Below the pieces are notes generated by a model, which saw nothing but the letters and a program-made list of their open reading frames with translations, was not told the DNA's origin and made no database searches. From the NCBI GenBank assembly GCA_964452225.1, contig CAYVLM010000001.1:11810-44338 (forward strand): 32,529 nt of DNA. Direction: 5' to 3'. Below are positions 11,203 to 30,409 of the stretch, piece by piece (position 1 is the stretch's first letter; every line of letters begins with the position of its first letter). Both the position numbers and the translations under genes were made by a program. Source of the stretch: an uncultured Steroidobacteraceae bacterium. Lineage in GTDB: Bacteria; Chloroflexota; Limnocylindria; QHBO01.

Positions 11203-13284
11203 TCAGGAACCGGCGAGCTGGGCGACCTGGGCGCGAACGGTTGCCGGGTCGTTGGTCGGCGCCTCGCACGCATAGCCACGGCAGACGTAGGCGGTCGCCC
11301 GCCCCCCGCGCGGCCGCTTCCCGGCGAGCACCGGCCACTCGTCCGGGGTGTCCCATGTGTCGCCGGCGGTCGGAGCGCTCACCACCACGAGATCCGGCGC
11401 ATACGGCCCCAGCGCCGCGGATCGCAGGGCCTCGGCGCCCGGATCGTTGGGGCTCGCCCCCGCGATGACCGCGTCAATGGGGTCGCTGAGCGCCCGGTCA
11501 ACCGCGCACAGCATCCGGCCGAAGAGCGTCGGCTGCCGCTCCAGGGCAGGTCCGACGGCGCGCAGGATGCTGCGCGCCCGCCGATCGTGGCTTGGATCGG
11601 CGGTGACGAGGGCCAGTCGCTGCAGCAGATCGGCCGCGACGGCGTTCCCGGAGGGCGTGGCGGCATCGACGAGTGAGCGCGGACGCGCGACGAGGACGTC
11701 GTGCTCCGCCGACGTGTCCCAGAAGGTCCCGGAGCCGGCGTCCCAGAAGTCGGCCACGGCCCGCTCCACGAGCGATTGCGCGAGCAGCAGGTCGTCGACC
11801 CGTCCGCTCGCGGCATGGGCGGCCAGCAGCCCGTCTGCCAGGCAGACGTAGTCCTCCAGGAAGCCTGGCGTGTGGCCGCGCCCGTCCCGGGCCGTGCGCC
11901 AGACTCCGCCGTCGGCGCGCACGAGGACGGTGCGGATGAAGGCGACCAGCCGATCGGCGGCTGCCAGCAGCTCCGGGCGTCCGAGCGCGGCGCCGGCCTC
12001 GGCGAGCGAGCGCAGCAGCAGGCCGTTCCAGGCGGCGAGCTGCTTGCCGTCGCGTGCGGGCCGGACACGCTCCTCGCGCGCCCGGGCCAGCGAGGCACGC
12101 GCGCGCGCGAGCAGCGCCGCCGGCGGCAGCTCGGCTCCGGCGCTGAGGATCGAGCGTCCCTCCCAGTTGCCCTGCGGGGTCACGCCCCAGTGGGCGGCCA
12201 CCGCATCCACCTCCCCGGCGCCAAGACCGTCCGCGGCCAGGACGGATCTGAGCTCTGCATCGGTCCAGGTGTAGAAGCGCCCCTCCTCGCCTTCCGAGTC
12301 CGCGTCGAGCGCGGAGGCATAGCCCCCGTCGGGGGTCTCCAGCTCGCGGACCACGAAGGCGAGGGTCGATTCGACCACCGCCCTGTACTGCTCCTGGCCG
12401 GTGGCACGCCAGGCCTCGAGGTAGGCATGCGCCAGGAGCGCGTTGTCGTAGAGCATCTTCTCGAAGTGCGGCACCAGCCAGCGCGCATCGGTGCTGTAGC
12501 GGGCAAAGCCACCGCCCACCTGGTCGCAGATGCCGCCGTGGGCCATGGCATCCAGGGTCGTGGTGACCATCGCCAGGGTTGCCGGATCGTGCGAGCGACG
12601 CCAGGCCCGCAGCAGGAACTCAAGCACCATCGGGGCCGGGAACTTGGGCGCCGGGCCGAACCCGCCGAATCGCGGGTCGAAGGTGGCGGCCAGGTGCCGG
12701 ACGGCACCCTCCACGATCGTGGTCCCCGGGTCATGGTCCCCCGGCGGCACCGCGAGCTGCTCCCGGAGGTGCGCGGACAGCCGGCTGCCCTGCGCCGTCA
12801 CCTCCCCCCGGCGGGTTCGGTACGCTTCTGCCACCGCGGAGAGCACCCGGCGAAACCCGGGCATCCCGTGCGCGTCCTCCGGTGGGAAGTAGGTCCCGCC
12901 GAAGAACGGGTCGAGATCGGGCGTCAGGAAGACCGACATCGGCCAGCCGCCGGAGCCGGTCATCGCCTGCACCGCGGCCATGTAGATCTCGTCGATGTCG
13001 GGGCGCTCCTCGCGATCGACCTTGATCGAGACGAACTCACGGTTGAGAAGCGCGGCCGTCTCGGCGTCGGTGAACGACTCGCGCTCCATGACGTGGCACC
13101 AGTGGCAGGCCGCGTACCCGACGGAGAGGAAGATCGGGCGGTCCTGTTTCCGGGCGTGCTCGAGCGCCTCGGGGCCCCACGGGTACCAGTCGACCGGGTT
13201 GTGCGCGTGTTGGAGGAGGTACGGGCTCGTCTCACCGGCGAGCCTGTTGGCGGGGATCTCCTCGGCCGGGCCTGGACTGCGCAT
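11203..13284 (-). CDS. Thioredoxin-domain protein of the DUF255/YyaL (SSP411-like) family
   Basis: N-terminal [18 protein letters not shown] and [17 protein letters not shown] (Trx-like CxxC), followed by a long alpha/alpha-barrel-like region typical of the family. Confidence 0.92.
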
Positions 13285-24758: not shown

Positions 24759-25400
24759 ATGACTGTGAGCGTCGATCCCACCCCCGAGCCCGAGCGGGCA
24801 TCCGACCTGTTCGTCGACTTCGCGAACACGCTCTCCTTCGATCACGGTGAGCCGATCGAGGGGCTGCCGGACACGGATGCGCTCCTCACCTGGCTCCGGC
24901 AGCACGAGCTGCTCAGCGACCGCGCACGGGCAGCAGAGGCGCATCGGCTGGCGCACAGTCCGGCGGAGGCCGCCCGACGCATGGAGCGCTTCCGTTACCT
25001 TCGCAGCCTCCTCCAGGAGATGGCAGGGCGCCTGGGGCGCGGCGATCTCCCGACGCGGGAGGAGCTCCGCCGGCTGAACCACATCCTCAAGCACGGCCTG
25101 CACTACCACCAGCTGGAGGCCGAGGCGGACGGCGCCCGCTACTCCCTGGCGCAGGTCGGGGACCGTCTTGACCAGGCACGCGCCGCCATCGCCGGCTCGT
25201 TCGCCTACTTCCTGGCGGAGGGCGATCCGTCACGGCTGCGGGTCTGCGCCAACGACGGCTGCCGGGAGGTCTTCGTCGACCGCTCCCCCACCGGGCGCCG
25301 GCGCTGGTGCACGATGCGTGTCTGCGGCAACCAGGCGAAGGTGGCCCGCCACCGGGCCCGGCAGCGTTCGCATCTTCCGGTGGAGGCCGGGGCCGACTAG
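24759..25400 (+). CDS. CGNR zinc-finger (ABATE/DUF1470, COG5516) putative transcriptional regulator
   Basis: C-terminal LRVCANDGCREVFVDRSPTGRRRWCTMRVCGNQAKVARHRARQR (zf-CGNR) after an ABATE-like N-domain (FVDFANT...). There is no SD. TATACT ends 10 nt upstream of the ATG, which suggests a near-leaderless transcript. Confidence 0.88.
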   Translation: MTVSVDPTPEPERASDLFVDFANTLSFDHGEPIEGLPDTDALLTWLRQHELLSDRARAAEAHRLAHSPAEAARRMERFRYLRSLLQEMAGRLGRGDLPTREELRRLNHILKHGLHYHQLEAEADGARYSLAQVGDRLDQARAAIAGSFAYFLAEGDPSRLRVCANDGCREVFVDRSPTGRRRWCTMRVCGNQAKVARHRARQRSHLPVEAGAD

Positions 25401-25628
25401 AATATCCGCGGCTCGACGGCATCCGCCATCGGCCGATCAAGCCCGCAACGAGGCCGCAGCACAGCACCCGTGGACGCCGGTTCCTGTAGACCCGAACCAC
25501 GCGCGCGCTCCGGACGCCCGGATCGCAGCAGGATGAGCGCCTAGCGACGACGCTGACGCGACCGTCCTCGCGATCCCGACCACCCGCGCGCGCCACCGCA
25601 GCAGACGCGACAGCGAGGTGGTCGTTCC

Positions 25629-26897
25629 ATGCTCTTCCTGAGCCAGCTCATCGGCAAGCCGGTCCTGGACCGGGTCGGCGAGCCCTTCGGCAGGGTCCGC
25701 GACCTGATCGTGGCCCTCGGTGAGCAGTACCCGCCGGTCACGGGCCTCGTGGTGCGCGTCACGGGCGGACGGGAGATCTTCCTGCCCTGGAGCGACGTTG
25801 AGGAGATCGACCGGGCCGGCGCCCGACTCCACACCTCGAGCATCGACATCACCAGCTTTCGCCAGCGCCCGAACGAGATCCGCCTCTGGCTCGACCTGCA
25901 GGACAAGCAGATCGTGGACGTCGAGGGGCGCAAGATCGTGCGCGTCAACGATATCCAGCTGGCGCCGGTCCGCGGGCGCCTGCGCCTGATGGCGGTCGAC
26001 GTCGGGCTGGCGGGCATCCTCCGCCGGCTGGGACTCTCTGGCCCCGGAGAGCGGCTGGCACGTGCCCTCCGGCTTCCGATCGAGAACTACATCGAGTGGG
26101 AGGACGTCGATCCGGTCGAGTCAAGCGTCAGCTCGCTGAAGCTGCGCGTGCCGCACCAGGCGCTCGCCACCCTGCACCCGGCCGACGTGGCGCACATCGT
26201 GGAGCAGCTGGCGCCGCGCGATCGGACCGGGATCCTGGCTTCCCTCGACGACGAGCGAGCAGCGGACGTCATCGAGGAGCTCTCAGCGGAGGACCAGGTG
26301 GACGTGCTCGAGGCGCTGCCGCCGGAGACTGCCGCCGACATCCTCGAGGAGATGGGTCCCGATGACGCCGCCGACCTGCTCGCCGACCTCTCCGAGGAGC
26401 GTCAGCGTGAGCTCCTGGGGCTCATGGAGCCGGACGAGGCCAACGAGGTCCGCGAGCTGCTCACCTACGGCGAGGAGACGGCCGGCGGCCTGATGACCAC
26501 CGACTTCATCACCGTGGGCCGGGACGAGACCGCGCAGCAGATCATCGACCGTCTTCGGGAGCTTCGCCCGGATGCGGACCAGGCCTACTACCTGTACGTC
26601 ACCGATGCCGACGGCATCCTGGTCGGCACCATCACCCTGCGCGGGCTGATCATCGCCGACCCAGAGACCTCCATCGCCGACTTCACGCGTCCCGATCCGA
26701 TCTCGGTCACGGTCGAGACCGATGCCGACGAGGTCGCCCGGGCCATCGCACGCTACAACCTCCTCGCGCTGCCGGTCGTCGACGACGAGGGCCATCTCCA
26801 GGGCGTGGTCACCGTTGACGACGCCATGGAGCGCGCGCTGGGCGAGGAGTGGCGCAAGCGCCTTCCCGAGCTCTTCGAACCGGTCGAGGAGAAGTGA
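25629..26897 (+). CDS. Soluble PRC-barrel + MgtE N-domain + CBS-pair protein (MgtE cytoplasmic sensor module without the membrane pore)
   Basis: N-terminal PRC-barrel-like LIGKPVLDRVGEPFGRVRDLIV. MgtE_N acidic helices (HPADVAHIVEQL...DVLEALPPETAADILEEMGPDDAADLLADL). Tandem CBS (GGLMTTDFITV..., LLALPVVDDEGHLQGVVTVDD). It ends without TM helices. GAGGTGG SD lies 7 nt before the ATG. Confidence 0.88.
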   Translation: MLFLSQLIGKPVLDRVGEPFGRVRDLIVALGEQYPPVTGLVVRVTGGREIFLPWSDVEEIDRAGARLHTSSIDITSFRQRPNEIRLWLDLQDKQIVDVEGRKIVRVNDIQLAPVRGRLRLMAVDVGLAGILRRLGLSGPGERLARALRLPIENYIEWEDVDPVESSVSSLKLRVPHQALATLHPADVAHIVEQLAPRDRTGILASLDDERAADVIEELSAEDQVDVLEALPPETAADILEEMGPDDAADLLADLSEERQRELLGLMEPDEANEVRELLTYGEETAGGLMTTDFITVGRDETAQQIIDRLRELRPDADQAYYLYVTDADGILVGTITLRGLIIADPETSIADFTRPDPISVTVETDADEVARAIARYNLLALPVVDDEGHLQGVVTVDDAMERALGEEWRKRLPELFEPVEEK

Positions 26898-28204
26898 CCC
26901 GGCTCGCCGTTCCTCGCCCGATCAGGCGCGCGCAGCGATCGCTCCGCGATCGGCTGCCGAACTTCCGCACCCATCGCACCGGCATCCTCGCCTTCCTCGG
27001 GGTCATGGGGCCGGGCCTCATCGCGGGCCTGGCCGGCAACGACGCCGGCGGGATCTTCACCTACTCGGTGCTCGGCGCCCAGACCGGGCTGCAGCTCCTG
27101 TGGATCCTGCCGATCACGACGGTGATGCTGATCATCGTCCTCGAGATGGCGGCGCGCATGGGCGCCGTCTCGGGACAGGGGCTCGGCGACCTGATCCGCG
27201 ACGACTTCGGCATCCGTTGGACCCTCTTCGCCATGGTCGTCCTGCTCATCGCCAACGGCTCGAACATCGCCGCCGAGTTCGCCGGCGCGGCGGCAGCGCT
27301 CGAGATCTTCGCCGTTCCCCGCTGGATCGTGGTTCCCGTCGTGGCGGCCGGCATCTGGGCCCTCGTCGTGTTCGCGAGCTACCGGGTCGTCGAGCGTGTC
27401 TTCCTGTCGGTCGCGGTCGTCTTCATCGCCTATGTGGTCAGCGCCTTCGTGGCCGGCCCGGACTGGGGACGGGTCGGGAGCGCACTGGTGACGCCCCAGG
27501 TCAGCTTCGAGCCGAGCACGCTGCTGCTGATGGTGGCCACCGTGGGGACCACCGTGACCCCGTACATGTTCTTCTACCTGCAGTCATCGGTCGCAGACAA
27601 GGGGCTCGGCCCGGAGGAGCTCAACCTCGAGCGCGCCGACGCGATCCTGGGCGGGATCTGGACCAACGTGATCGCCCTGTTCATCGTGGTCGTCACCGCC
27701 GTCACCCTCTTCGGCCGCGGAATCGAGCTGCGCGACGCCGCCGATGCCGCCCAGGCGCTGGCCCCGGTCGCCGGCCGTTTCGCGGAGGCGCTCTTCGCCT
27801 TCGGCCTCTTCGGAGCTTCGGTGCTCGCAGCGACGGTGATGCCGCTGACCACCAGCTACACGGTGTGCGAGTCGTTCGGCTGGGAGTCGGGGGTGTCGCG
27901 CCGCTTCCGGGAGGCGCCGGTATTCATGGGCCTGTACACCGCGCTGATCGTGATGGGCGCGGCGGTGGTCCTCATACCCGGGATGCCCCTCACGGGGCTG
28001 ATCATCGTCAGCCAGAACCTCAACGGCATCCTGCTGCCGGTAATCCTGGTCTTCATGCTGCGCTTGGTGAACAATCCGAGGATCATGGGATCGCATACGA
28101 ACCCGACCTGGCTGAACGTCCTGGGCTGGGGACTGACCGGGCTGGTGAGCCTGCTCACCCTGGTCCTGGTGGGAAGCGCCGTGATCGGCGCCGTGACCGC
28201 CTGA
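26894..28204 (+). CDS. NRAMP/SLC11-family transporter with a non-canonical metal site (NRMT-like, probable Mg2+-type)
   Basis: GPGLIAGLAGNDAGGIFTYSVLGAQTG (TM1) and VGTTVTPYMFFYLQSS (TM6) align to the NRAMP DPGN and MPH motifs but read DAGG and TPY. About 11 TM helices. GTG 26894 overlaps the upstream stop (GTGA); an alternative GTG is at 26849. Confidence 0.9.
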   Translation: MTRLAVPRPIRRAQRSLRDRLPNFRTHRTGILAFLGVMGPGLIAGLAGNDAGGIFTYSVLGAQTGLQLLWILPITTVMLIIVLEMAARMGAVSGQGLGDLIRDDFGIRWTLFAMVVLLIANGSNIAAEFAGAAAALEIFAVPRWIVVPVVAAGIWALVVFASYRVVERVFLSVAVVFIAYVVSAFVAGPDWGRVGSALVTPQVSFEPSTLLLMVATVGTTVTPYMFFYLQSSVADKGLGPEELNLERADAILGGIWTNVIALFIVVVTAVTLFGRGIELRDAADAAQALAPVAGRFAEALFAFGLFGASVLAATVMPLTTSYTVCESFGWESGVSRRFREAPVFMGLYTALIVMGAAVVLIPGMPLTGLIIVSQNLNGILLPVILVFMLRLVNNPRIMGSHTNPTWLNVLGWGLTGLVSLLTLVLVGSAVIGAVTA

Positions 28205-29238
28205 TGAAGCCGCGCCCCCCGCTGGTCGGGCCGCTGAGCGGGGTCCGGTCGCTGCCCATGCGGCTGCGCCGGCCGGTCAAGACCGCGAGCGGGGAGGGCG
28301 GCGAGGAACCAACCCTCGAGCCGCACCCCGAGGTGGTGGAGGCGCCGGGGCTGCGCTGGATCGACGTCGAGCGCCCACGCCTCGCAGATCGGCTCTGGCT
28401 CGCGGAGAACTTCGGCTTCCACGAGCTCGACCTGGAAGACGTCGCCAGCCACAACCAGCGTCCCAAGCTGGACGCCTACGACGAGTACATCTTCGTGGTC
28501 GTGCAGTTTCCGAGCTTCGACCCCGAGACCAGCCGTCTCGACGCCGTCGAGCTCGACGTGTTCATGGGTCCGGACTACCTGATCACCCTCCCCAACGAGC
28601 CCATTCCGCCGCTGCGCGCCCTCTTCGAGCGGGCGCAGGGCCGCGAGGAGGTCCGTGCCGAGGTCATGGCCAACGGCTCCGGTCGCCTCCTGTACGAGAT
28701 TCTCGACCGATGCGTGGACGCCTCCTTCCCGATGCTGTCGCAGATCGGTCGCAAGCTGCGCCGCATCGAGAACGACATCTTCGAGGGCCGAAGCGGGGAG
28801 GTCGTCCGCGACATCAGCAACGCCAAGCAGGAGATCATCAACTTCCGGGCCGTGATCCGCCCGCAGCGGGTGGTCTTCCACGATCTCGAGCGCGCGAAGC
28901 AGCGCTACCTCCCGGAGGACCTCGACGTCTACTTCGACGACCTGACCGATGCCTCCGAGCGCATCTGGGACATGCTCGAGAACTTCAAGGAGATCGTCGA
29001 GGGGCTCGAGGACACCAACGAGTCGGTGCTCTCCCATCGGCTCAACGACGTGCTGCGCATCCTCACCGCGGTCACGGTGATCCTCCTGCCCCTCACCCTG
29101 GTGACCGGCTTCTTCGGCATGAACGTGGGATTCCCCGGCGAGCCGCGGGCGCCCGCCTACTTCTGGGGCATCGTGATCGCCATGGCGATCATGCTCGTCG
29201 CCCTGGTGGTCTTCTTCCGGAGGCGCGGCTGGCTGTAG
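28204..29238 (+). CDS. corA: CorA-family Mg2+/Co2+ transporter
   Basis: Two C-terminal TM helices with the signature FFGMNVGFPG (GMN). The cytoplasmic domain is typical (LRWIDVERP..., FHELDLEDV). TGATG overlap with the NRAMP gene stop. Confidence 0.9.
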   Translation: MKPRPPLVGPLSGVRSLPMRLRRPVKTASGEGGEEPTLEPHPEVVEAPGLRWIDVERPRLADRLWLAENFGFHELDLEDVASHNQRPKLDAYDEYIFVVVQFPSFDPETSRLDAVELDVFMGPDYLITLPNEPIPPLRALFERAQGREEVRAEVMANGSGRLLYEILDRCVDASFPMLSQIGRKLRRIENDIFEGRSGEVVRDISNAKQEIINFRAVIRPQRVVFHDLERAKQRYLPEDLDVYFDDLTDASERIWDMLENFKEIVEGLEDTNESVLSHRLNDVLRILTAVTVILLPLTLVTGFFGMNVGFPGEPRAPAYFWGIVIAMAIMLVALVVFFRRRGWL

Positions 29239-29373
29239 TCCGACCGACCGTCGGTCCAAGAATACGCACGCGGACAGCCACCCCCGGGCCGATGGTCACG
29301 ATCGACCGATCTGGATGGCCCGTTCGCCGCATGGGGTCTTGACAAGCCGGCAGTTGCGTGGGAGCCTCAGGCT

Positions 29374-29406
29374 GCACATATGTGCGTCATGATGCTCAAT
29401 TGTGCG
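29374..29406. promoter_or_regulatory. Perfect 12-nt palindrome GCACATATGTGC plus a direct repeat of its 3' half (TGTGCG) 20 nt downstream: candidate SorC/DeoR operator
   Basis: The palindrome is at 29374-29385. TGTGCG occurs at 29381-86 and 29401-06. The site is in an AT-richer patch just upstream of the regulator gene, and a TTGACA lies at 29339-44. Confidence 0.4.
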
Positions 29407-29437
29407 AGCTGAACGGAGACAGGACGGCTTGCTGACG

Positions 29438-30409
29438 ATGACGGGCCGGCGGACCAGCAGCAGCGACGTGCGCCAGATGGTGCGCATCACGCAGCTCTAC
29501 TACCGCATGCACCTCAGCCAGGAGCAGATCGGCGAGCGCCTCGGCCTCAGCCGCTTCCAGGTCGGCCGGCTCCTGGCCCGGGCGCTGCGCGAGGACATCG
29601 TCAAGATCGAGATCCGGCACCCTGTCGCCCGCCTGATCGAGCTCGAGGATGCCCTCGCCGAGCGGTTCGGTCTCGGGACAGCCGTCGTCGTGGACGTCCC
29701 GACGTCGACCTCCGAGAAGGCGGCCGAGCAGCTCGCCCGCGAGGCCGTCGCGGGCGCCGCGGTGCGCTTCCTCGCCGACCTCCACCCGAACGGCTCGATC
29801 GGAGTCTCCTGGGGGCGGACGATGCTCGAGCTGGCGCGCCAGCTCGAATCTGGCTGGACGAGCGCCACCGAGGTCGTCCAGCTGAACGGCGCTACCTCCC
29901 TTTCGGCCGAGCCGACGCGTGCCAACGAGATCGCGGAGCGGTTCGGCGCGACGACCGGGGCCGCGATCCGGATGCTCGCCGCGCCGGCGATCGTGGGCAG
30001 CCCGGCGCTGCGGCGAGCACTCGAGGATGACCCCTCGGTCGGAGCGACGATCGAGGCTGCCCGAGCCACCGCGACCGCGATCTTCTCCCTCGGCGTCCTG
30101 ACCCCGCAGAGCGTCCTCGTCGGCTCGGGCTTTCTCACCCCCGGGGACGTGGCGGATCTCCGGGCGGCGGGCGCGGTGGGCGACATCATCGGCCGCTTCC
30201 TGCGCGTGGACGGCGCCACCGCCTCGCTGGAGCTGGACCAGCGGACCGTGGGGCTTCCCCTTGCTGACCTGGCCGCCAAGCCGATCTCGATCGGCGTGGC
30301 GGCGGGCGCCGGCCGCGGGCCGATCTCGCTGGGCGCGCTGCGCGGCCGCTACCGCAACGTCCTGATCGCCGACGCCGACACGGCGCAGTGGGTGATCGAC
30401 CATGGCTGA
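29438..30409 (+). CDS. SorC/DeoR(Bsu)-family sugar-phosphate-binding transcriptional regulator
   Basis: N-terminal HTH (MVRITQLYYRMHLSQEQIGERLGLSRFQVGRLLARALREDIVKIEI) followed by a sugar-phosphate-binding domain (GVSWGRTM..., QLNG). Start is uncertain (GTG 29402, ATG 29438, ATG 29477). Confidence 0.88.
   Translation: MTGRRTSSSDVRQMVRITQLYYRMHLSQEQIGERLGLSRFQVGRLLARALREDIVKIEIRHPVARLIELEDALAERFGLGTAVVVDVPTSTSEKAAEQLAREAVAGAAVRFLADLHPNGSIGVSWGRTMLELARQLESGWTSATEVVQLNGATSLSAEPTRANEIAERFGATTGAAIRMLAAPAIVGSPALRRALEDDPSVGATIEAARATATAIFSLGVLTPQSVLVGSGFLTPGDVADLRAAGAVGDIIGRFLRVDGATASLELDQRTVGLPLADLAAKPISIGVAAGAGRGPISLGALRGRYRNVLIADADTAQWVIDHG

Follow-up and report, generated by a model that had tools for sequence, protein, structure and literature searches.

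An NRMT-clade SLC11 transporter between an MgtE-like partner gene and corA in a Chloroflexota genome

Members of the SLC11 family of metal transporters can be told apart by a handful of residues at the metal site: canonical members carry DxxN together with A/CxxM, the NRATs carry DxxN-AxxT, and the NRAMP-related Mg2+ transporters (NRMTs, or NrmTs) carry DxxG-TxxA/T (Ramanadane et al. 2022; PMC8806188). One characterised NRMT, EleNRMT of Eggerthella lenta (PDB 7QIA, 7QIC, 7QJI and 7QJJ), transports Mg2+ and Mn2+, excludes Ca2+ and shows no proton coupling; both histidines of helix 6b have given way to other residues, as have the polar residues of helices 3 and 9, the helix-1 Asp and Glu133 remain, and Thr224 supplies an extra oxygen ligand whose loss in the T224A mutant abolishes detectable Mg2+ transport (PMC8806188). 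Most NrmT genes adjoin a gene for a homologue of MgtE's cytoplasmic N-terminal domain, an adjacency that has led to speculation about feedback regulation (Shin et al. 2014; PMC4072509). Here we describe a locus of this kind in a window of 32,529 nucleotides, the whole stretch of DNA that was analysed (assembly GCA_964452225.1, contig CAYVLM010000001.1, forward-strand positions 11,810 to 44,338), from a soil-type metagenome-assembled genome (MAG) deposited as an uncultured Steroidobacteraceae bacterium and placed by GTDB in Chloroflexota; Limnocylindria; QHBO01. The gene of interest encodes a transporter that is almost certainly a member of the NRMT clade of SLC11, and it forms the middle of a translationally coupled three-gene unit (MgtE-like partner, NRMT, corA) which, by analogy with EleNRMT, probably constitutes an uptake system with Mg2+ as its main substrate.

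Metal site and clade of the transporter

The NRMT-type SLC11 transporter gene (26894..28204, + strand) encodes 436 residues, and its identity rests on its Pfam Nramp match, its similarity to 7QIA, its place in a phylogenetic tree and a Foldseek search with an AlphaFold2 model. Although the open reading frame is listed as 26849-28204, the GTG at 26894 is the preferred and most likely start, because it overlaps the upstream TGA (GTGA), gives a 436-residue product that is on record in a public protein collection (P0002, 100% identity) and agrees with the proteins of relatives, whose alignment begins at residue 1. The protein matches Pfam Nramp (PF01566) with E=2.5e-87 over 353 of 357 profile positions; given this strong match and the conservation of the substituted columns among relatives, the NDAGG/TTVTPY pattern discussed below is not a product of chance.

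In the SLC11 fold the metal is bound by the unwound centres of helices 1 and 6. The AlphaFold2 model of the transporter (mean predicted local distance difference test, pLDDT, 82.2; predicted template-modelling score 0.82) has one break in helix 1, at residue 50, and another in helix 6, at 221-222, and these predicted breaks match the discontinuous helices 1 and 6 of the fold. The helix-1 motif N49-D50-A51-G52-G53 (27038..27052, +; codons N49 27038-27040, D50 27041-27043 and G53 27050-27052) keeps the Asp of canonical D-P-G-N and replaces its Asn with Gly53, whilst the helix-6 motif G218-T219-T220-V221-T222-P223-Y224 (27545..27565, +; codons G218 from 27545, T219 27548-27550, T222 27557-27559, P223 27560-27562 and Y224 27563-27565) replaces the Ala, Met and His of canonical G-A-x-x-M-P-H with Thr219, Thr222 and Tyr224, respectively. 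In a MAFFT alignment of 76 sequences, including 71 unbiased representatives and three solved SLC11 proteins, GNDAGGI and GTTVTPYMFFYLQS share columns with YMDPGNF and GATVMPHVIYLH (GATVMPH) of DraNramp and with FIDPGNW and GAVVMPHNLFLH (GAVVMPH) of the Bacteroides fragilis Nramp (BfraNramp), and phmmer pairwise alignments to PDB chains agree with these columns. The preliminary description of this DNA had taken Asn to be replaced by Gly in NDAGG, and Met by Thr and His by Tyr in TTVTPY. All three replacements hold, with Gly53 on the Asn column of DPGN and T222 and Y224 on the MPH columns, and neither MAFFT nor phmmer shifts the assignment to reveal DPGN or MPH. The segment it marked began at the Asp codon (27041) and ran, harmlessly, a few codons beyond the helix-6 motif to 27589. 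It did not mention a fourth, functionally relevant substitution: T219, the equivalent of EleNRMT T224, replaces the Ala with which the canonical helix-6 motif A-x-x-MPH begins.

Taken together, D-A-G-G and T-T-V-T are the Thr form of the published signature DxxG-TxxA/T, in keeping with the earlier claim that loss of the Met and the Asn is the published hallmark of NRMTs. The TxxT-P-Y variant is common rather than odd. In a sample of about 70 full-length proteins, each representing a 50%-identity cluster and collected without motif constraint, DxxG-TxxS-P-Y occurs in 16, the EleNRMT-type DxxG-TxxA-P-W in 13, the DxxG-TxxT-P-Y of the window protein in 12 and DxxG-TxxT-P-W in nine. Relatives' loci (L084-L113) have Thr at both helix-6 positions wherever these positions can be read. 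A wider set of 80 loci (L004-L083) was collected with search patterns, drawn from a nine-sequence alignment, that themselves contain the motifs, so signature counts from that set are biased and the unbiased ones are those of the representatives and of the relatives' loci. In raw counts the residue at the Met position (Ala versus Thr/Ser) seems to go with that at the His position (Trp versus Tyr), with Ala-Trp in 36 and Ser-Tyr in 14, but a phylogenetic independent-pairs test had too few contrasts and returned p=1, and no coupling is claimed.

Placement of the whole protein agrees with that of its metal site. Searched with phmmer against all PDB sequences, it finds EleNRMT first (7QIA and related entries; E=2e-111, with 402 residues aligned and no gap), whereas no canonical Nramp does better than 1e-24; computed identities are 46.5% to EleNRMT, 28% to DraNramp and 26% to BfraNramp. 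In a maximum-likelihood tree of 83 rows (IQ-TREE, LG+C20+F+G4, support by the Shimodaira-Hasegawa-like approximate likelihood-ratio test, SH-aLRT), which contains two canonical anchors and no CabNRMT of Clostridium, DraNramp and BfraNramp split from the other 81 rows with an SH-aLRT of 100. The window protein lies well inside the NRMT side, where Chloroflexota and Limnocylindrales sequences are its nearest neighbours and EleNRMT belongs to the same subgroup. Foldseek of the model against the PDB returns 7QIA first (template-modelling, TM, scores 0.87/0.94; root-mean-square deviation, rmsd, 2.5; E=1.4e-27), with DraNramp at 2e-15 and then human NRAMP1 and DMT1, ScaDMT, EcoDMT and a plant NRAT at lower ranks. 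With the NCBIfam model for MntH the protein reaches 125 bits (cut-off 430), and with TIGR01197 it reaches 61 (cut-off 272). None of these four lines of evidence, from tree, phmmer, Foldseek and NCBIfam, places the protein inside the canonical MntH clade.

With EleNRMT the protein shares an identical helix-1 AGNDAGGI (D55 and G58 in EleNRMT), the Thr at the Mg2+-critical helix-6 position, the helix-3 Glu and the helix-10 Gln. It differs in that EleNRMT reads GTTIAPW, with Ala in place of Thr222, Trp in place of Tyr224 and Asn in place of Leu229; in its host, a gut actinobacterium in the case of EleNRMT; in having corA joined into its operon; and in being known from sequence alone. The canonical Nramp/MntH proteins (DraNramp, ScaDMT, EcoDMT and BfraNramp) have in common with it the SLC11/LeuT fold, the helix-1 Asp and the helix-10 Gln, but stand at 26-28% identity in a separate clade, with DPGN in place of DAGG, A-x-x-MPH in place of T-x-x-TPY and a proton pathway whose residues are lost here. 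At the canonical positions on helix 3 (27245..27277, +), DraNramp E124 and D131 correspond in the multiple sequence alignment to L118 and I125, whereas the Glu nearest the metal site is retained (E128, equal to DraNramp E134 and EleNRMT E133). The first helix-6b histidine, DraNramp H232, is replaced by Y224, and the second, H237, by Leu229 (27578..27580, +), where EleNRMT has Asn; Gln374 on helix 10 (28013..28015, +) is conserved, matching EleNRMT Q379 and DraNramp Q378. By alignment, then, the proton-pathway residues of helices 3 and 6b are clearly lost, as in EleNRMT. On this analogy, uptake would be uncoupled from protons and powered by the membrane potential together with the gradient of Mg2+, and the wider site, composed wholly of hard ligands, would accept largely hydrated Mg2+ and also Mn2+.

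The three-gene unit and its MgtE-like partner

The transporter gene is flanked on both sides by genes with which it overlaps. Its start shares the sequence GTGA (26894..26897, +) with the stop of the partner gene (25629..26897, +), an abutment repeated in the relatives of the same genus that indicates translational coupling of partner and transporter. Its stop shares one base with the ATG of corA in the overlap TGATG (28202..28206, +). The corA gene itself (28204..29238, +) encodes 344 residues with a Pfam CorA match of E=5.9e-67 and a GMN motif at 29116-29124. The preliminary description had appealed to neighbouring Mg-related genes, and the Pfam assignments of an MgtE-like partner upstream and a CorA downstream substantiate that appeal. 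The attachment of corA to the unit is young, joined only in this genus: each of the genus's eight genomes (including loci L085-L090 and L099) has it immediately 3' of the NRMT gene, and it was found at that place neither in the 22 other loci from relatives nor in the 80 wider ones. In one sister genus an orthologue of 68% identity is found on another contig, and the other sister genera have only paralogues of 32-34%. A second CorA occurs elsewhere in three of five near-complete genomes of the genus.

The partner is a soluble protein of 422 residues in which a PRC-barrel region at the N terminus is followed by MgtE_N and a pair of CBS domains, and which has no membrane domain (Pfam: PRC 2-62, MgtE_N 182-283, CBS twice). 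It matches the cytosolic domain of Thermus thermophilus MgtE (2YVY) at 39% identity (phmmer E=1.4e-45), and its AlphaFold model (pLDDT 81.6) superposes on 2YVY with a TM score of 0.87, normalised to the target, and an rmsd of 2.2 A. Mapping of metal sites followed site assignments from PMC5882242, with native residue numbers of the MgtE chain derived from the alignment. The acidic residues of three sites are kept: D91 and D247 of Mg4 correspond to D245 and D398 of the partner, D95 of Mg6 to D249, and E59 of Mg7 to D213. The Mg5 site is half lost, D226 and D250 corresponding to N377 and E401. Of 20 partner homologues, 18 or more carry Asp at each of the positions 245, 249 and 398, and all have either Asp or Glu at 213. 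Thus the partner resembles the MgtE cytosolic domain (2YVY/2ZY9) in its N domain, its CBS pair and the acidic residues of Mg4, Mg6 and Mg7, and differs from it in being a separate polypeptide, in having no transmembrane pore, in the Asn at the Mg5 position D226 and in some 170 extra N-terminal residues, which form PRC-barrel-like beta modules.

These extra residues have features of their own. In the partner model two beta-rich modules, at about 1-67 and 83-124, precede the MgtE-like part, and the N-terminal region (residues 1-170; window 25629-26140) is conserved across phyla. The second module (about 83-124, motif DKQIVD..G.KVVRVND) is not called by Pfam and looks like a second PRC-barrel-like domain in the AlphaFold2 model. 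A full-text literature search returned no paper mentioning PRC-barrel together with MgtE.

The association of partner and transporter has been known since 2014, and its broad occurrence is confirmed here. The partner lies upstream in 29 of 30 relatives' loci, and in about 57 of the 80 wider NRMT loci the full-length form, N-terminal beta region included, immediately precedes the transporter gene on its strand; these loci span Acidobacteriota, Nitrospirota, Syntrophia, Clostridia, Patescibacteria and archaeal MAGs. Two partner-NRMT pairs in archaeal MAGs (Methanocellaceae, L057; Nanoarchaeota, L009) have transporters with 49% identity to the window protein; in the tree they are surrounded by bacterial sequences, a pattern suggesting that partner and transporter were transferred horizontally together. 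A candidate natural fusion of partner and transporter in locus L006, of 863 residues, was rejected: a stop at 2950-2952 ends the first reading frame and a second one starts at 2962, which make two genes. Five long representatives (P0233, P0246, P0250, P0224 and P0242) carry N-terminal extensions with no Pfam domain and offer no evidence of fusion, and P0199, in which CBS is joined to a truncated Nramp, appears to be an artefact of gene calling.

From the retained sites at the N/CBS interface, the partner would most likely sense cytosolic Mg2+ and, feeding back on the transporter, restrain it. A bolder and rather doubtful extension is that NRMT and partner form a split MgtE, in which the partner would dock onto the transporter, perhaps via its beta modules, and close it once Mg2+ is sufficient, in a unit that also delivers CorA. 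If that were so, a single post-translationally gated module would take the place of riboswitch control of Mg2+ uptake.

Magnesium, manganese and other substrates

The DxxG-TxxT signature by itself cannot tell which of Mg2+ and Mn2+ is the principal substrate in vivo. The best indirect evidence that the TxxT-P-Y subtype serves Mg2+ comes from Clostridium muellerianum (L054), whose partner-NRMT pair is preceded by an M-box and whose transporter shares the six-residue signature D-G-T-T-P-Y with the window protein. The genomic inventory points the same way. In the assembly (2.4 Mb in 479 contigs, 88% complete) no MgtE pore domain and no MgtA above cut-off were found, the CorA of the operon is the only CorA detected, and there is one protein of the CNNM/CorC type; the unit therefore holds both recognisable Mg2+ uptake candidates in the assembled part. 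Mn2+ uptake, for its part, is probably covered by a second Nramp-like gene, on contig C283 (L002:623-2067) and cut by the contig end, whose metal site reads DVDAAS and GAVIMPW (DxxS-AxxM-P-W) and so retains the Met. Since it directly follows a gene for a repressor of the DtxR/MntR type (Fe_dep_repress, Fe_dep_repr_C and FeoA domains), this second gene is the more natural Mn2+ importer. In the tree its product falls, with three representatives of the same signature, in a basal subclade of the NRMT side (SH-aLRT 96), a Met-retaining subclade that, as far as could be told, is uncharacterised so far.

Several observations weigh against this account. The affinity of EleNRMT is higher for Mn2+ (about 100 uM) than for Mg2+ (about 400 uM) (PMC8806188). 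The NrmT of Acidobacterium capsulatum, which has a partner gene but no riboswitch, fully rescued an Mn2+ uptake defect and only weakly a Mg2+ defect, and the authors concluded that efficient Mg2+ transport is confined to some of the NrmTs; in one published test co-expression of the partner left complementation unchanged (Shin et al. 2014; PMC4072509). In the window, neither the M-box (RF00380) nor any other Rfam family was found at gathering thresholds, and none was found in the leader of the unit at permissive ones. The partner has Asn at the D226 position of Mg5, one half of the D226N/D250A double mutation used to disable that site in MgtE (PMC5882242). The helix-9 Arg positions read Y/T by pairwise alignment and S/R by multiple alignment, a mapping that depends on the alignment chosen. 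Finally, 88% completeness leaves room for further Mg2+ transporters outside the assembled part.

The strongest alternative, unlikely as we judge it, is an NRMT-clade protein with Mn2+, or a mix of Mn2+ and Mg2+, as its main substrate, in which case the partner would respond to something else. It draws on the lower Km and Kd of EleNRMT for Mn2+, on the missing M-box and on the A. capsulatum NrmT (Acp2977, partner Acp2976), which shares with this locus a partner directly upstream and the lack of a riboswitch, behaved mainly as an Mn2+ transporter in Bacillus subtilis and rescued a Mg2+ mutant only at millimolar Mg2+ (PMC4072509; compared here by its published description). Against this, in the whole genus the NRMT gene shows translational coupling with corA, the same six-residue signature is found under M-box control in Clostridium, and the Met-retaining paralogue beside its DtxR/MntR-type repressor is a better Mn2+ candidate. 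In the environment Mg2+ is more abundant than Mn2+ by orders of magnitude, which would leave an unselective, uncoupled carrier transporting mostly Mg2+ (following PMC8806188). Furthermore, the Acidobacteriaceae homologues in our set are of the TxxA-P-W type and belong to another subclade, and in the tree the TxxT-P-Y window protein is closer to EleNRMT and to the Clostridium sequence with the M-box than to the Acidobacteriaceae sequence, albeit through weakly supported forks. The TxxT-P-Y subtype might differ from TxxA-P-W proteins in its Mg2+/Mn2+ preference.

Far less probable is another hard cation, Al3+ or Ca2+, as substrate. Thr222 does stand at the threonine position of the plant NRATs, and TxxT-type NRMTs are themselves known only as sequences. 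The NRAT signature DxxN-AxxT is not that of the window protein, however: NRATs keep the helix-1 Asn and the first helix-6 Ala, where it has Gly and Thr as NRMTs do; the NRAT structure SiNRAT (8ONT) is among its weakest PDB matches (E=6.4e-6); EleNRMT excludes Ca2+; and TxxA/T has already been counted as one NRMT signature (PMC8806188). Weakest of all, and already refuted, is a canonical proton-coupled Mn2+/Fe2+ importer (MntH) whose motifs look odd through misalignment, a reading that follows the public label of close homologues, 'Mn2+/Fe2+ NRAMP family transporter', and the weak NCBIfam MntH match, but that fails on motifs which sit unshifted on the DPGN and MPH columns, on an MntH score far below cut-off, on a tree and a fold search that place the protein with EleNRMT, and on the joint absence of the Met, the Asn, both helix-6b histidines and the helix-3 residues E124 and D131.

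Uptake of Mg2+ by an NRMT thus remains the preferred account. The preliminary description had taken the substitutions to fit an NRMT-type Mg2+ transporter rather than an Mn/Fe importer; its clade assignment stands, and Mg2+ over Mn2+ is likely but unproven in view of the Mn2+ affinity of EleNRMT and the behaviour of the A. capsulatum NrmT. As a protein, the transporter is a routine case within a clade that was described in 2014 and for which structural characterisation followed in 2022, and it adds little beyond another NRMT. Its consequences are rather for annotation and for experiment: the label 'Mn2+/Fe2+ NRAMP family transporter' is probably wrong for the NRMT clade, and reconstructions of metal homeostasis in soil Chloroflexota (Limnocylindria-like MAGs) should count the locus as Mg2+ uptake. 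The role of the conserved MgtE-like partner has been a question in the literature since 2014, and a riboswitch-free partner-NRMT-CorA operon would suit testing it cleanly.

Leader, regulation and flanking sequences

The three genes are preceded by an intergenic leader (25401..25628, +) that contains a GAGGTGG ribosome-binding site and no recognisable riboswitch. The riboswitch search had a positive control in Clostridium muellerianum, where the M-box upstream of the partner-NRMT pair was detected at L054:924-1093 (152.8 bits), and another M-box was detected upstream of a partner-NRMT pair in a Eubacteriales MAG (L067:2673-2911). An upstream M-box distinguishes those NRMTs for which Mg2+ transport is proven, and membership of the clade does not depend on it. 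Control by an M-box is also described for the NRMT genes of Clostridium, among them CabNRMT/NrmT of C. acetobutylicum (Ca_c0685 and Ca_c3329; PMC4072509). That system shares with the present locus the clade concept and the association with a gene for the MgtE cytosolic domain, and differs from it in its riboswitch and in a partner split into two genes (Ca_c0685 being compared by description). A simple scan of 25300-29500 gave no sigma-70 promoter and no intrinsic terminator, and is probably uninformative at 70% G+C.

Three minor observations complete the description. The Clostridium muellerianum locus also has a T-box leader, downstream of its NRMT gene. The NRMT gene of one other genome in the genus of the window (L099; G002:C3:62680-63979) is matched as two segments that lie in different frames, one for residues 1-240 and one for 236-434, and is either a frameshifted pseudogene or an assembly error. 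Upstream of the operon, window positions 24759-25400 hold a gene for a putative stress-induced regulator of the ABATE / CGNR zinc-finger type.

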